From the sequence record NC_106721.1: a stretch of 64,000 nucleotides of DNA; one strand, 5' to 3'. The translations under genes and the position numbers were made by a program. The stretch comes from Escherichia phage EC148. Below the pieces are notes generated by a model that worked only from the letters and a program-made list of their open reading frames with translations, was not told the origin of the DNA and ran no database searches. Positions 24,304-30,226 of this stretch are shown piece after piece; position 1 is the stretch's first letter; each line of letters begins with the position of its first letter.

Positions 24304-24493
24304 GGGTTTAAACTCCGCTTTGGAAAATGCATTAATGCAGCAGTGGGAAACTGGCTATAAGGATGGTGTTGAATCCTGCGCTACTATGCTAGAAGTTATT
24401 GCTAATACCTTAATGGAGAAAGGCAATAAAGAATTAGCTGAGCTATTAGACAGTATTGGGCAAAACTTCAGAGAACAGGTGAAAAATGCGTAG
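24272..24493 (+). CDS. hypothetical protein
   Basis: ORF. Confidence 0.4.
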   Translation: MAFSKPILPDKGLNSALENALMQQWETGYKDGVESCATMLEVIANTLMEKGNKELAELLDSIGQNFREQVKNA

Positions 24494-25322
24494 ATTAATT
24501 ATTATTAGTGGTGCGGGTTTGAGTGTTGAAAGTGGTGTACGAGCCTTCCGTACTGATACTGCTAGTGGTAAAGCATTGTGGGATGACTATGATCTAGAAG
24601 AAGTATGTAATATTCATGCCTTTCGTGGTAATTTTTATCATAAAACCCATATGTTTTACAACAAGCGTCGTGAAGAGCTAAAAACTGTTGAACCCAATCT
24701 TGCGCATTTGCGTATTGGTGAATGGTATAAACAATATCCAGGTCAAGTAGTAAACTTGACTACCAACGTTGATGACCTTATTGAGCGTGCTGGCGTTCCA
24801 CATAGTGACATTCTGCATATTCACGGATATTTAAAAGAGGTTGTTGTAGCTGATAGCTACAATAGTAGCAATAAACGGATTATTGATGTAGGATACAATT
24901 CTATTGATCCAGATGATTATAAATGGGTTAAACCTAATGTAATCTTCTTTGGAGAGCATGCTCCTGCATACGCAGAAATGTATAATGTTTTTGACGGTAT
25001 TACCAGTCAAGATATGATCATTGTGGTTGGTTGCTCTAACCAAGTAATTAACTTCTACTGGGAATTATTTCCTGTTCTTAATAGGACTGCTGCGAAATTT
25101 ATGGTAGTTAACTACTATGATAGTGCCCTCGCGGCGGAACCGGGCTATCAAGGTATGACTCGTAGTGAGATGTACCAGCTGGAAGAACGTGGTGTCCCTT
25201 ACTGGAGTAAAGGTGCGGTAGATGCTTTTAGTGATCCTGATTTTATTGCTCGTGTAGAAGCTCATTTAGAGGGTAGACCTTATGTGTCGAGAAGCAAGGG
25301 AAACAGATATGTCCATAGTTAA
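24486..25322 (+). CDS. Sir2-family (sirtuin-like) NAD-binding protein without zinc ribbon
   Basis: GAGLSVESGVRAFR, NVDDLIERAG...HIHG and VIFFGE motifs; no Cys in the usual Zn-binding insert. Confidence 0.7.
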   Translation: MRRLIIISGAGLSVESGVRAFRTDTASGKALWDDYDLEEVCNIHAFRGNFYHKTHMFYNKRREELKTVEPNLAHLRIGEWYKQYPGQVVNLTTNVDDLIERAGVPHSDILHIHGYLKEVVVADSYNSSNKRIIDVGYNSIDPDDYKWVKPNVIFFGEHAPAYAEMYNVFDGITSQDMIIVVGCSNQVINFYWELFPVLNRTAAKFMVVNYYDSALAAEPGYQGMTRSEMYQLEERGVPYWSKGAVDAFSDPDFIARVEAHLEGRPYVSRSKGNRYVHS

Positions 25323-25491
25323 ATCTGTGTATACACACCCCGATGATATATTTGTATGGGCGGATGGTAGTTGGTGCTATCGCTGTGAGCTGTGGGAGAT
25401 GGACTATAAATCCGATGACTATGGTGTTATATATGTTGATACGGTTGAGTATGATACGTTCTTAGAAAGGAACAAAAATGGAAATAAGTAA
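25309..25491 (+). CDS. hypothetical protein
   Basis: ORF, start set at MSIVKS. Confidence 0.4.
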   Translation: MSIVKSVYTHPDDIFVWADGSWCYRCELWEMDYKSDDYGVIYVDTVEYDTFLERNKNGNK

Positions 25492-25984
25492 TACTCCAAT
25501 TATTTTTCTAGATATTGATGGGGTGCTCAATTCGAGCATCTCCCACCATCATGCACCTGATGACGAAAAGATTTTCTTTGGAAGTGATTGGGTTTTCAAA
25601 CCGCTTCTCAAGGCTTTTCAGGACTTTATTCGTCCTTCTCCGATAATGATTGTTGGAGTATCCTCATGGTTCTCTGTCAGGAATGAGATGGAGAACGTTC
25701 AGATTATGACCGGATTAGGTCTTATCGATCGTTTTCTTGGTACAACGGATTTTACTGGGGGTGGATTATCTAGGGGTAATTCTGTTCTTCGCTTCGTTGA
25801 AAAGCATAAGCTCAAACATTGGTGTGTTCTGGATGACGCTGGTGCTATGATGTACCAGTATCCAACGGTTATAGTCAACGGTAGAACTGGAATAAATCTT
25901 CAAGATTTAATGGCTGTTAGCTATATGCTAGAATTTAGTCCAGATCTTGAAATGTGTAAAGCCCTACAACAATTTAAGGTGTAA
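25478..25984 (+). CDS. HAD-like hydrolase (putative phosphatase)
   Basis: Motif I-like IIFLDIDGVLN. Confidence 0.5.
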   Translation: MEISNTPIIFLDIDGVLNSSISHHHAPDDEKIFFGSDWVFKPLLKAFQDFIRPSPIMIVGVSSWFSVRNEMENVQIMTGLGLIDRFLGTTDFTGGGLSRGNSVLRFVEKHKLKHWCVLDDAGAMMYQYPTVIVNGRTGINLQDLMAVSYMLEFSPDLEMCKALQQFKV

Positions 25985-25986
25985 AT

Positions 25987-26415
25987 ATGTTCAATAATGT
26001 ATTCTCTAAAGAAGCTAACCCAATTTTGGTTAACTTTTGGCGTACTCTACCGGCTAGCCTGTATAATGAGGCTATTAACTCCTTGAAAATATGGTGTGAG
26101 AATAACGAAATCTCCTTTGCTTTTAAAGATGATATTGATGAGGCCCCCTGTATTGGTTTAATTGTGCAGGTAGAGGATGGTCTTGAAGAGATTGTGGGCT
26201 GGAAAGAGTTAGACGAAATGGGCTTAGTTTTTGCGTTAAATTATAAGCTGTTTATGCCTGCTAAGCATCGCCTTGTTGTTAACTATAAAACTAGTGAATC
26301 TCCTGGTTTTCAGGTTAATGAACGTTATGGTTGGTCTTACTCACCGGAAGAAGTAAATGAGGGGATTCAGAAACTTCGACGTTTCGGGTATATGATCCCA
26401 GGTTTAACTGCTTAA
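25987..26415 (+). CDS. hypothetical protein, paralogue A of a tandem pair
   Basis: Shares architecture and C-terminal ...GYMIPGL motif with the next ORF. Confidence 0.5.
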   Translation: MFNNVFSKEANPILVNFWRTLPASLYNEAINSLKIWCENNEISFAFKDDIDEAPCIGLIVQVEDGLEEIVGWKELDEMGLVFALNYKLFMPAKHRLVVNYKTSESPGFQVNERYGWSYSPEEVNEGIQKLRRFGYMIPGLTA

Positions 26416-26424
26416 GGAGGCAGA

Positions 26425-26817
26425 ATGGAACAAGTATATTGGCGTCAGATTGATCCTAGTTTGGTGAAACGTGCGGAGAAGCTGCTACAACGTTGGTTGG
26501 GGGTAAGACAAGCCTCCTTCACTTTTCCGGAGCAGCAAATAGATGATCCCTGTGTTGGTGTTTTCCTATCCGGCTACGCGGGGGAATGGGAGTTGGATTG
26601 GAATGAGTTGTCTGCTATGGGTTTAATTGTTGCCCTAAATTTCTCTTTGTTCCACCCACGTGGTTTGGCCATATGTCGTGTGTCGGATGATGGTTGTTCG
26701 CCCCATCTTTTACAGGTGGAAGATGATATTTGGGAGTACACTCCAGATATTCTCAAAGAAGCTAAAGAACAATTAAACCGTGTTGGGATTTATGTTCCAG
26801 GCTTAAATGATGAATGA
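26425..26817 (+). CDS. hypothetical protein, paralogue B of a tandem pair
   Basis: RBS AAGGAGG; ...GIYVPGL C-terminus; MGL(I/V)xALN(F/Y)xLF core shared with the previous ORF. Confidence 0.5.
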   Translation: MEQVYWRQIDPSLVKRAEKLLQRWLGVRQASFTFPEQQIDDPCVGVFLSGYAGEWELDWNELSAMGLIVALNFSLFHPRGLAICRVSDDGCSPHLLQVEDDIWEYTPDILKEAKEQLNRVGIYVPGLNDE

Positions 26818-26908
26818 TTTTTATTAGCTGAACTCTGATTACCGAGTCATTTTGGCTCGGTTTTATCCGTACTCAAGACCAATGATAGCACCATCCGGAA
26901 AATTTTAC

Positions 26909-26937
26909 TTGCAGGATGCCCAAAATCTTGATATAAT
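26909..26937 (+). promoter_or_regulatory. sigma70-type promoter (plus) heading the long leader upstream of the helicase-like gene
   Basis: -35 TTGCAG / 17 nt / -10 TATAAT. Confidence 0.5.
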
Positions 26938-27436
26938 ATTTATATTGAATTGAGAGACATTAGTAAAAATTGATTTTGCTAATTTTTCTTGTTTACAATC
27001 CGCGATACGGAACAGTTAGGCTGCCCCATTAAGGGTTGTTTTAACTGTTACGTGTTAGTTTTTAAACAAATAGTTAATAGAATACTTAGCGATCTGCGTC
27101 CCATAGGAACCCTGGTAAGGCCTCGAAGCAACCTAGTATGAGGTGGTTGTGAAGTGAGATGGGAGGAGTGAAAAACTCCGAGACGTGATTCTGTAAGTTA
27201 TATTGCATCTAGTATGAGCTAGTATATGAAGCATTAGGTGAGCAAATCTGGCTTAGCGGCCATCCTCAAGGATTTGTGCGATATAGCAAAGCAGCAGCGC
27301 AGCGTGAAAGTGGAAGTTGCCACCCCCCTTCAGTATTTGCGATTAATTTGTTGAGAAATTGACAGTAACAGTTGTTCTATTCTTTCTGAATAGTCCTAAA
27401 GAAAACTTATTTTATTTCCAACACAGGAGTATTGTT

Positions 27437-30226
27437 GTGTTCTCAATCCTACAAGGTCATGCAGGATTTCATCGCGATTTAGCCACAGGCAATTGGCGAG
27501 AAGTTAAAGCAGAAGACTATCTTTTTGCTAAAAGATTTTCCTCAAAGCATCCTGAAGGTAAACCAGCCTCAATGCCCTTCAAGTTTGATGTAATTGATGA
27601 AGTTGATCCTCAAACCCTAGTAGAAATGCTTCCTCTTATGAGACGTTTAACGTCTGACCCTCATATCGTTGCGGTACGAGGTCGATGTCTTGCACCTAAA
27701 AATAATGTGCGACGTAAGAAGGGCAACTTTAATGTATCTAATCCAAGTCATATAATTGCAATGGACGTGGATGGTATTGTAGATACAGGTGGTTGTAACA
27801 AGTTTGATCTTGTTGGCATGGCTCGACATATTATTAGGATGTTAAATAGTATTAGTGAGGATATGTTTCCTCTTGATGCAGGGTTTATCGCTCATGCATC
27901 GTCTTCGGCTGGGCTAAAACCAGGTATCCGAATGCACTTAATACTAGAATCTAATGTTAAAGTAACTCAGGGTCAAATCAAATTCTTATTTACATCTATC
28001 AATGAAAGTAGTAGACAAAAGTACGGCTTTGATATTGCCGACTTAGCTTATTACTCTTCCGTACAGCTCCATTATTTTGCAGATCCGTTATTTACTGATG
28101 GTATAGTAGATCCGTTTAAGGCGGAGGGTGCTTCACGTCTGGTATTTGTTAAAGGTTCTAAAGTAAATTTACCAAATAATCTGGTTGACTATGAAACAAC
28201 TAGAGGTGAGTTTAAGGAGGAGTTTTACTCTTTACTCGATCAAATTAAAGGTAAAAAAGCTGCCTCTGATAAAGTAGAGGAAACTATCAGCGAACTAGAA
28301 GAAGCTGAGGATGGGGTGTACTTGCGTATTATCCCCAAACTATACCATAGAGCATTAGAGGATGGTGTTGATTTTGCATGGCTAGAAAAAGAAATCCGTC
28401 CAGCCTTATCAGAATATATCGCAACTAAAGATAACAGTCGTAATATTCAAGATTATTTTAATAACGGTCGTAAGCAGGCTCTGAAAGCGTTTGTTAATAA
28501 TTCTAAACGCGATATACCCGATATTTTAAAAGGTATTCCACTTAAAAAGCTAGAAACTAATTCTCTAGAAACTGATAATTTCTTGAAACTAAATACTGTG
28601 CCACCAGAAGGTTATATGACTTTTGTAAAAGCGAGTTTAGGCACAGGTAAAACCACGGCGGTTGTGCGTTGGTTAGATTCAGGAGTTATTAAAGGTAATT
28701 TTTTAGCAATTACCAATACTAGAGCACTGGTATCTTCAAATGCTAAGAAATTTAGTGCAGGACAATACGATAAGTCTGTAGATATGCTTAATTTTAAGCG
28801 TGGTGCTATTGACCGTATGTCCACAACTATTCACTCTTTGCATAAGTTCAAGAGTTTTATTGGTCAAATTGATGCAATCTTTATCGATGAATGTGATGCA
28901 GTAATGAACGACCTATTATTCGCCCCGGTTGTTAAACAACGTCGTGAATGTATTCAGGTTCTTCGGGATATTCTTGCAACTGCAAAAATCATTATATTAT
29001 CTGATGGGGATATTAGTGCAGAAACAATTGAAGCATATGGTTCTTTGATTGAGTTTGATAAACCGGTTGCATTTTATAATCATCACCGTAAAATGCTATC
29101 AAAAGCTCATGCTTATGAGTTCCCTGATGAATCCAGTATTTGGGTTGCACTTCAGACTTCTCTAGAGATGGGTGAGAAATCTATCCTAGTATCTGACTGT
29201 GGGCCAGATGAACTGAATGAGAAGGGCATGGCATTGCGTCGTAATACGGGTGCGTTAGTTAAGGAAATCCACTCAAACTCTACATCTGATGTGGATATTA
29301 GACGTATTCTGGATTATACAACTAATGAGCTAATTGACCAACAAATTGATTGCTTATTATGTAGTCCATCCGTAACGAGTGGAGTTGACTTCAACTATTT
29401 TGATAACGTATTTGTTATTACTAGAACTAGTAACCAGGCGCCAAACATGCGTTTCCAAGCAATCAGGCGCGACCGTGGTGCTCAGAATATTTATTATTTT
29501 ATTGATAAATCTACGAGTGGATTCTCCGCAGGTTCTGAACAATATAACATTGATGAAGGTTGGCTGGAATTAGCACAGCAATTATACGCACGTCGTAGGG
29601 AGCTGGAGTCTAGGAACTATACTAGTACTTTACGTTATTACTTGCTTGATCAGGGTGCAACTATTGATATTTTCAGTGAAAGCTGGGGAAATATCGAAGG
29701 TGCAGGAAAAGAGTACACGGAAGAGCGAATCAAAGCCATTTTGTATTCAACTCCTGATTATTGTGCTCCACGCCATGCAGATGCGTATGAAGCTAAACTA
29801 CTTCTTGTTCGCTACTATCATCTTGAGTCTATCAAAGATGTAACAGTTGAGCATGTTGAACAATATATCAAGGATAAACCGAATGATCGAGCGGCATTCT
29901 TCCATAAGATGCACGAGATGTTCTGGGAGGATATTAAGAAGTGTTCAAATGTCACTATCAAACCATTCATAGAAGCTCTGAAAGGTAAGAAGAAAGATTT
30001 CTTCCTTAAAACAGGTCAAAGTGCTAACCCAAAATATGCCAGAATGTATCTTGGTATGATGGGTATTGGTAAGGATATGAACACGGAGAATATTGTAGAC
30101 TGGTACAGAACTTATTGTAAAATCGAGTGTATGCCAATCCCATATAAGTTTATGACTGATGAGGAAAAACATATGCATGATGAAGCAATGGCAGAGCTAG
30201 GTGCTAGAAATGACAGTGAAGAATAA
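27437..30226 (+). CDS. large Walker-A/DExD helicase-like protein (possible replication-origin-binding helicase)
   Basis: Walker A SLGTGKTT and FIDECD motif; start set at GTG 27437 with RBS AGGAG; the supplied ORF begins at 27359. Confidence 0.55.
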   Translation: MFSILQGHAGFHRDLATGNWREVKAEDYLFAKRFSSKHPEGKPASMPFKFDVIDEVDPQTLVEMLPLMRRLTSDPHIVAVRGRCLAPKNNVRRKKGNFNVSNPSHIIAMDVDGIVDTGGCNKFDLVGMARHIIRMLNSISEDMFPLDAGFIAHASSSAGLKPGIRMHLILESNVKVTQGQIKFLFTSINESSRQKYGFDIADLAYYSSVQLHYFADPLFTDGIVDPFKAEGASRLVFVKGSKVNLPNNLVDYETTRGEFKEEFYSLLDQIKGKKAASDKVEETISELEEAEDGVYLRIIPKLYHRALEDGVDFAWLEKEIRPALSEYIATKDNSRNIQDYFNNGRKQALKAFVNNSKRDIPDILKGIPLKKLETNSLETDNFLKLNTVPPEGYMTFVKASLGTGKTTAVVRWLDSGVIKGNFLAITNTRALVSSNAKKFSAGQYDKSVDMLNFKRGAIDRMSTTIHSLHKFKSFIGQIDAIFIDECDAVMNDLLFAPVVKQRRECIQVLRDILATAKIIILSDGDISAETIEAYGSLIEFDKPVAFYNHHRKMLSKAHAYEFPDESSIWVALQTSLEMGEKSILVSDCGPDELNEKGMALRRNTGALVKEIHSNSTSDVDIRRILDYTTNELIDQQIDCLLCSPSVTSGVDFNYFDNVFVITRTSNQAPNMRFQAIRRDRGAQNIYYFIDKSTSGFSAGSEQYNIDEGWLELAQQLYARRRELESRNYTSTLRYYLLDQGATIDIFSESWGNIEGAGKEYTEERIKAILYSTPDYCAPRHADAYEAKLLLVRYYHLESIKDVTVEHVEQYIKDKPNDRAAFFHKMHEMFWEDIKKCSNVTIKPFIEALKGKKKDFFLKTGQSANPKYARMYLGMMGIGKDMNTENIVDWYRTYCKIECMPIPYKFMTDEEKHMHDEAMAELGARNDSEE

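Follow-up and report, generated by a model that had tools for sequence, protein, structure and literature searches.

Two adjacent genes at 25987-26817 of the window (the whole stretch of DNA that was analysed, 64,000 nucleotides) encode paralogous proteins of the phage domain family DUF7415, each of which appears to carry two DUF7415 units, and the conserved polar motif of the family has been lost in three of the four units of the pair. The pair is a stable core module of the early operon of T5-like phages and not a fast-changing accessory locus. Our leading reading, which we hold tentatively, is that the two products form a non-catalytic, hetero-oligomeric binding module acting on a protein partner early in infection. 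The features of the pair are as follows.

25987..26415, forward strand: gene 1, open reading frame from ATG 25987 to TAA 26413-26415, 142 aa, pI 4.7, orthologue of T5.106
26414..26420, forward strand: Shine-Dalgarno sequence AAGGAGG of gene 2, as read from the sequence, overlapping the TAA of gene 1
26425..26817, forward strand: gene 2, open reading frame from ATG 26425 to TGA 26815-26817, 130 aa, pI 4.5, orthologue of T5.107

The gene 1 product is identical to VUF55419 of record LR597659. In a BLASTP comparison, the two products align over 124 aa with a single gap (32% identity, 48% positives, E=7e-21); on this evidence they are true paralogues, with a similarity far above chance. A preliminary description of this DNA had placed both open reading frames at the same coordinates and had proposed a tandem duplication that has since diverged, with a pairwise alignment as the check; the alignment bears this out. 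It had also correctly read the core motif, which is MGLVFALNYKLF in gene 1 and MGLIVALNFSLF in gene 2, but its C-terminal motif GY(M/V)(I/V)PGL was slightly misread. The tails are GYMIPGL (gene 1) and GIYVPGL (gene 2), so that the shared pattern is G-x-x-[IV]-P-G-L.

Both genes lie in the same reading frame, with TAA and 9 nt between them (26413-26427). Of 28 T5-like loci, 27 have a spacer of 9 nt from the gene 1 stop to the gene 2 ATG and one has a spacer of 10 nt, a constancy most simply explained by the conserved Shine-Dalgarno sequence of gene 2. Read-through of the stop codon joining both frames was considered and rejected, since the 10-nt spacer breaks the frame and gene 2 has a strong Shine-Dalgarno sequence of its own.

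The window comes from a T5-like phage. Over the pair region it matches Escherichia phage T5_ev212 at 100% identity and many Tequintavirus genomes at 96-99%; in the T5 reference, T5.106 and T5.107 are both annotated as hypothetical. Genes are ordered nrdD, terminator and promoter, two small open reading frames, a Sir2-like gene, a small open reading frame, a HAD gene, gene 1, gene 2 and terminator, so the pair stands at the end of the nrdD/Sir2/HAD operon, a context seen in six T5-like lineages. Genes 1 and 2 are the final two genes of this early transcription unit, directly before the unit of the origin-binding helicase. The neighbouring features are given below.

24486..25322, forward strand: Sir2-like gene in the same operon as the pair, orthologue of T5.102 (Pfam SIR2, E=8e-25)
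25478..25984, forward strand: HAD_SAK_2 phosphatase-like gene, orthologue of T5.105 (PF18143, E=4e-20), its stop 2 nt before the gene 1 ATG
26841..26866, forward strand: rho-independent terminator closing the operon, with a hairpin at 26841-26861 (9-bp stem) followed by UUUUAU
27437..30226, forward strand: origin-binding helicase, orthologue of T5.108 and first gene of the next transcription unit (phrog_3712, E=0; Herpes_ori_bp)

In the T5-like lineages inspected, double-domain DUF7415 genes had the Sir2-like gene as their most constant neighbour on the upstream side, and the sole exception was a contig (L130) whose sequence ends about 800 nt upstream of its DUF7415 gene. This link to Sir2 was found in T5-like phages only. 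The Sir2-like protein has GAGxS, TTNVDD and HG motifs, and reading its sequence, the usual four-cysteine zinc ribbon seems to be missing. Unlike the pair, the HAD gene is dispensable or mobile. Sugarland and Slocum lack it, one contig has it ahead of Sir2, in JLBYU43 it is split, and DT57C and SelmaRatti carry truncated forms. RefSeq T5 (T5.105) and phrog_18062 label it 'Sir2 (NAD-dependent deacetylase)', which is probably a carry-over from the neighbouring gene.

The terminator has a fold energy of -13.9 kcal/mol (z=-3.96; none of 200 shuffles as good), and T5, Slocum and Sugarland all have a terminator annotated at the equivalent place. Between the pair and the helicase gene lie about 620 nt of non-coding DNA (26818-27436), in which no Rfam match and no notable repeats were found, only short ones. 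For the helicase, the list of open reading frames starts at TTG 27359, and the identical public record LR597659 at ATG 27437.

Matches to the 831-nt pair came from 439 phage records, of which 435 carry 80% or more of its length, with identities of 90-100% in Tequintavirus and about 75% in Epseptimavirus. Across the 435 T5-like genomes, gene 1 and gene 2 never occur apart. Measured against the T5 and Epseptimavirus orthologues, dN/dS was 0.04-0.13 for gene 1 and 0.04-0.20 for gene 2, which indicates purifying and not diversifying selection in both genes. The preliminary description had assigned the pair to an accessory region and had linked such pairs with host-range or anti-defence diversification. 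Neither claim was supported, in view of the presence survey, the fixed place in the early operon, the same arrangement in more distant T5-like lineages (below), the strong purifying selection and a duplication that seems older than the split of the genera.

Insertions and deletions among the T5-like orthologues of gene 2 concentrate in the hairpin of its N-terminal unit (alignment columns 60-72, about 26570-26590 of the window), where variants such as GYAGE, SRDQNDVSVD and VYVPDNEAIEH give proteins of 129-136 aa; the remainder is well conserved. T5-like sequences with the pair genes are also filed under Listeria phage, Campylobacter phage A148 and Enterococcus faecalis, and these filings are probably contamination or mislabelled records.

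Family membership was assessed with the Pfam model of DUF7415 (PF24187), for which the gathering cut-off is 27 bits. The whole proteins matched with E=2.6e-35 and 120.8 bits (gene 1) and E=5.3e-31 and 107 bits (gene 2), in two matched stretches per protein. Both also matched phrog_2502 end to end, gene 1 with residues 11-142 on profile positions 2-134 (E=1.3e-62) and gene 2 with residues 1-129 on positions 4-134 (E=7.3e-61). The four half-proteins were then scanned separately, with the following results.

26029..26172, forward strand: N-terminal DUF7415 unit of gene 1, aa 15-62, 69.6 bits alone on PF24187
26188..26358, forward strand: C-terminal DUF7415 unit of gene 1, aa 68-124, 56.2 bits alone on PF24187
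26431..26586, forward strand: N-terminal DUF7415 unit of gene 2, aa 3-54, 59.8 bits alone on PF24187
26593..26760, forward strand: C-terminal, canonical DUF7415 unit of gene 2, aa 57-112, 52.7 bits alone on PF24187, sequence LDWNELSAMGLIVALNFSLFHPRGLAICRVSDDGCSPHLLQVEDDIWEY

Because all four halves pass the cut-off, each protein appears to consist of two DUF7415 units with a helix and a short tail behind them. Comparing N-terminal with C-terminal halves by hhalign gave no significant match, only a 15-residue helix at 22% probability; the internal repeat is therefore based on the curated Pfam model and on the repeated helix-plus-strands units of the predicted structures. A profile built from the single-domain relatives detected the C-terminal units and neither of the N-terminal ones.

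AlphaFold2 (AF2) models had a pLDDT of 87.4 for gene 1 and of 96.0 for gene 2 (pTM 0.89), and repeated helix-plus-hairpin units were present in both. The products are small, acidic and soluble, with a predicted fold that is compact, alpha+beta and pseudo-dimeric. Foldseek searches against BFVD returned DUF7415 proteins (E=2e-11 to 4e-2, query-normalised TM-score up to 0.84) and nothing else of significance, and PDB sequence searches with each protein and two family profiles gave no match; no solved structural relative of the DUF7415 fold was found. No enzyme signature or enzyme-like relative was found in the pair proteins. NCBIfam gave no match for either of them, nor did PADLOC (E up to 1) for the pair proteins or the Sir2 and HAD neighbours.

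To score the asymmetry between units, the profile of single-domain relatives alone was used. Against it, the C-terminal unit of gene 2 reached 64.7 bits (E=2.3e-22) with every conserved residue kept, and that of gene 1 reached 31.5 bits, with N replaced by K, S by D, H by M and GLA by HRL. The second unit of gene 2 is the only one to keep the family motif, and gene 1 lacks about half of the motif residues. Klebsiella phage Sugarland and a divergent metagenomic T5-like contig (L126; upstream copy 16.6 bits vs downstream copy 55.6 bits) have the same order, degenerate upstream and canonical downstream. Serratia phage Slocum, JX195166 and three metagenomic contigs have a single double-domain gene, and here the canonical motif is always kept.

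In a neighbour-joining tree, which is rough and without support values, the upstream copies grouped together with Slocum-type single genes as their sister, and the downstream copies grouped with the JX195166-type single genes. The single genes of Slocum and of contig L125 have the canonical motif although they group with the gene 1 lineage. This pattern suggests that the duplication predates the split of the T5-like genera compared, as one old duplication followed by losses, and that motif decay occurs only where a canonical partner coexists. Small open reading frames before two of the single-copy genes (L128 1627-1878; L129 4745-5017) were considered as decayed DUF7415 genes and rejected, being unrelated and having hydrophobic N-termini; their products are 83-90 aa long.

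A profile search of 1.84 billion representative proteins returned 159 matches. DUF7415 was present in 134 of the 138 matches of up to 600 aa, and giant VCBS-type repeat proteins among the matches were discarded as false positives. The typical member is a single acidic domain of about 75-80 aa; the median pI of the single-domain relatives is 4.8, and 104 of 116 have a pI below 5.5. Their very strongly conserved core reads [IV]-D-W-N-x-L-S-x-x-G-L-I-x-R-I-N-x-E-I-L-H-P-L-G-L-A-x-x-R-D-P-x-T-G-x-S-x-G-x-L-V-x-x-D-G-x-W-E-Y.

In Klebsiella phage JD18 (L032 3989-4207), a 72-aa single-domain gene lies between nrdD and nrdG and overlaps both, and other Klebsiella T4-like phages have the same placement; together with the nrdD operon of the T5-like phages, this gives a second, independent link of DUF7415 to the anaerobic ribonucleotide reductase. 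The DUF7415 gene of Citrobacter phage Margaery is one gene downstream of a NUDIX gene. Among 80 sampled viral loci, 34, most of them from P2-like prophages, have DUF7415 next to replication gene A, and DNA methylases, DinI and DUF3850 are found close by. The common theme of these contexts is early, replication or nucleotide-metabolism regions.

Fusions of DUF7415 are rare and involve dATP/dGTP pyrophosphohydrolase, thymidylate kinase, DUF3850/ASCH, Cox, DUF551, DUF5405 and a Lar zinc ribbon, the last of these (PF14354, in a single-domain relative) at 28.8 bits against a cut-off of 28.6. P2-like prophage loci with Lar, DUF5405 or DUF3850/ASCH fusions are L074-L076 (4001-4426), L110 (3701-4174) and L116, L122 and L123 (3704-4204), and DUF3850 is also frequent as a separate neighbour in P2-like loci. 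Extra tandem DUF7415 genes suggested by a first clustering of neighbours were not real pairs, having been linked through fused DUF3850 and DUF5405; no tandem DUF7415 pair was found among the 80 sampled loci of single-domain relatives. A literature search on DUF3850, DUF550 and Lar returned nothing relevant.

The reading we favour would run as follows. Single-domain relatives may act as homodimers, and the T5-like lineage would have fused two DUF7415 units into one chain; after gene duplication, the products of gene 1 and gene 2 may have become an obligate hetero-oligomer. The canonical unit of gene 2 would then be the working binding surface and the three degenerate units a scaffold, and the complex would bind and modulate a protein partner early in infection, presumably without catalysis. 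The likeliest partner would be a protein of DNA or nucleotide metabolism, with the Sir2-like enzyme of the same operon, the anaerobic ribonucleotide reductase and the replication machinery as candidates; a host nuclease or restriction enzyme would be a second, less likely one. What we count in favour of this sequence of events is the paralogy, the four units above the cut-off, the confident repeat-unit models, the lack of NCBIfam and PADLOC matches and the acidity, as well as the canonical/degenerate asymmetry, the canonical state of single copies, the joint retention, the dN/dS values and the operon context. The nrdD/nrdG, NUDIX and gene A/methylase neighbourhoods of the relatives and their nucleotide-metabolism and Lar fusions would fit it as well. 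Neighbours of the single-domain genes are heterogeneous, and no partner family was found to recur across the single-domain lineages, which makes the proposed target a guess. The domain is also so small that its conserved polar residues could have a role in folding (helix caps, turns) instead of binding.

Somewhat less probable than a joint complex, in our estimate, is that the products are two sub-functionalised monomers, each a pseudo-dimer with its own target and forming no mutual complex. Three observations would suit independent proteins: either chain alone gives a confident predicted fold, closed and made of two units; one gene is enough for several T5-like lineages; and the gene 1 and gene 2 lineages have long been separate. 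Against this, gene 1 lost motif residues only in lineages with gene 2, and the genes, with their fixed 9-nt coupling spacer, are never apart in 435 genomes.

A counter-defence or host-takeover inhibitor, that is a restriction-alleviation or anti-CRISPR-like blocker or a DNA mimic, is a less likely explanation again. It is close to the anti-defence idea of the preliminary description. PMC10644984 states only that T5 early genes without an assignment are likely to act in taking over the host or against its immunity, and that how T5 resists restriction is unknown. Weak leads towards an inhibitor are the Lar fusion, the acidity and a resemblance to the anti-CRISPR protein AcrIC4, but the genes are core, are under purifying selection and lie in second-step-transfer DNA.

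A bolder version of the binding-module reading, which we consider rather improbable as a whole, would make DUF7415 a new, structurally unprecedented phage binding module and the T5 pair a decayed, one-site heterodimer controlling a conserved early target. Candidates for that target would be the apparently zinc-less Sir2-like enzyme that the phage itself encodes and, on the host side, a nuclease or a restriction function.

Slightly less credible still is a small-molecule 'sponge' or sensor working in concert with the neighbouring Sir2, HAD or NUDIX enzymes, in which the canonical unit would hold, in its conserved polar pocket, a ligand derived from nucleotides (NAD, ADP-ribose or a cyclic nucleotide signal). 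Within the 55 residues of the unit, the polar positions N, S, N, H, R, S and D are very strongly conserved, which would agree with a pocket, and neighbours and fusion partners handle NAD or nucleotides. In size and probable oligomeric nature, the DUF7415 proteins would resemble known phage sponges. On the criteria of a shared fold and of binding to cyclic nucleotide or ADPR-derived signals, the pair was not placed with the nucleotide-signal sponges Tad1, Tad2 and Acb2.

That the pair is an exonuclease or a tail tube protein is very improbable, the sole support being product names in some GenBank records ('Phage exonuclease (ACLAME 70)' or 'tail tube protein'). No recognisable nuclease domain, motif or fold was found in the pair proteins; a tail tube protein was rejected, with no match in PHROGs, Pfam, BFVD or the PDB and with the genes in the early operon between nrdD and the helicase. 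Several public product names thus appear to be wrong, 'exonuclease' and 'tail tube protein' for the pair and 'Sir2' for the HAD gene. A glycyl-radical 'spare part' of the GrcA/YfiD kind, an idea prompted by the nrdD context and the C-terminal R-x-G-Y tail, was also discarded: PF01228 gave no match (E up to 1), neither of the two tails (RRFGYMI, NRVGIYV) agrees with RVxGY, the motif of the Gly_radical domain, and the C-terminal tail is absent from the single-domain relatives.

The finding itself is ordinary, in that these are catalogued core early genes of T5 from a named, uncharacterised, phage-specific family. The pair is already listed as T5.106/T5.107, DUF7415 and phrog_2502, so novelty is low; no member has an assigned function, and no papers were found on DUF7415, PF24187, phrog_2502, 'ACLAME 70' or T5.105/106/107. 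What is added here is the double-unit architecture, the canonical/degenerate asymmetry with its phylogenetic pattern, and a fold for which no solved relative was found, as well as the distribution over early and replication modules of T5-like, T4-like and P2-like phages, the fusions and the corrected labels. Identifying a partner or ligand would assign a function to a domain that hundreds of phage genomes carry, and it could clarify the role of the conserved nrdD-Sir2-DUF7415 module in T5-like phages. Should the bolder reading of a new binding module and a decayed heterodimer be true, it could be relevant to how T5-like phages resist nuclease-based defences and host methylation, for which an explanation is still lacking.

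Among known systems, the best structural match of the 130-aa model was AcrIC4 (PDB 8dfo chain M), with 52 residues aligned at 2.4 A. This anti-CRISPR is a phage protein of about 57 residues, roughly one DUF7415 unit in size. The Lar zinc-ribbon domain (PF14354) is absent from both window proteins. Within the family, the T5-like proteins differ from most members in having two units, a C-terminal helix and the G-x-x-[IV]-P-G-L tail, whereas most members have one unit. The single-domain proteins of T4-like and P2-like phages (JD18 gp054, Aeromonas P2-like prophages) share with the pair the core motif, the acidity and an early, replication or nucleotide-metabolism context, but they have no Sir2 partner and are neighboured by nrdD/nrdG, NUDIX, gene A or DUF3850. 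Duplicated subunits of homodimers can decay into obligate heterodimers with one working site, and the pair would, by analogy, resemble that pattern, with one paralogue keeping the motif and the other decaying only where both are present.
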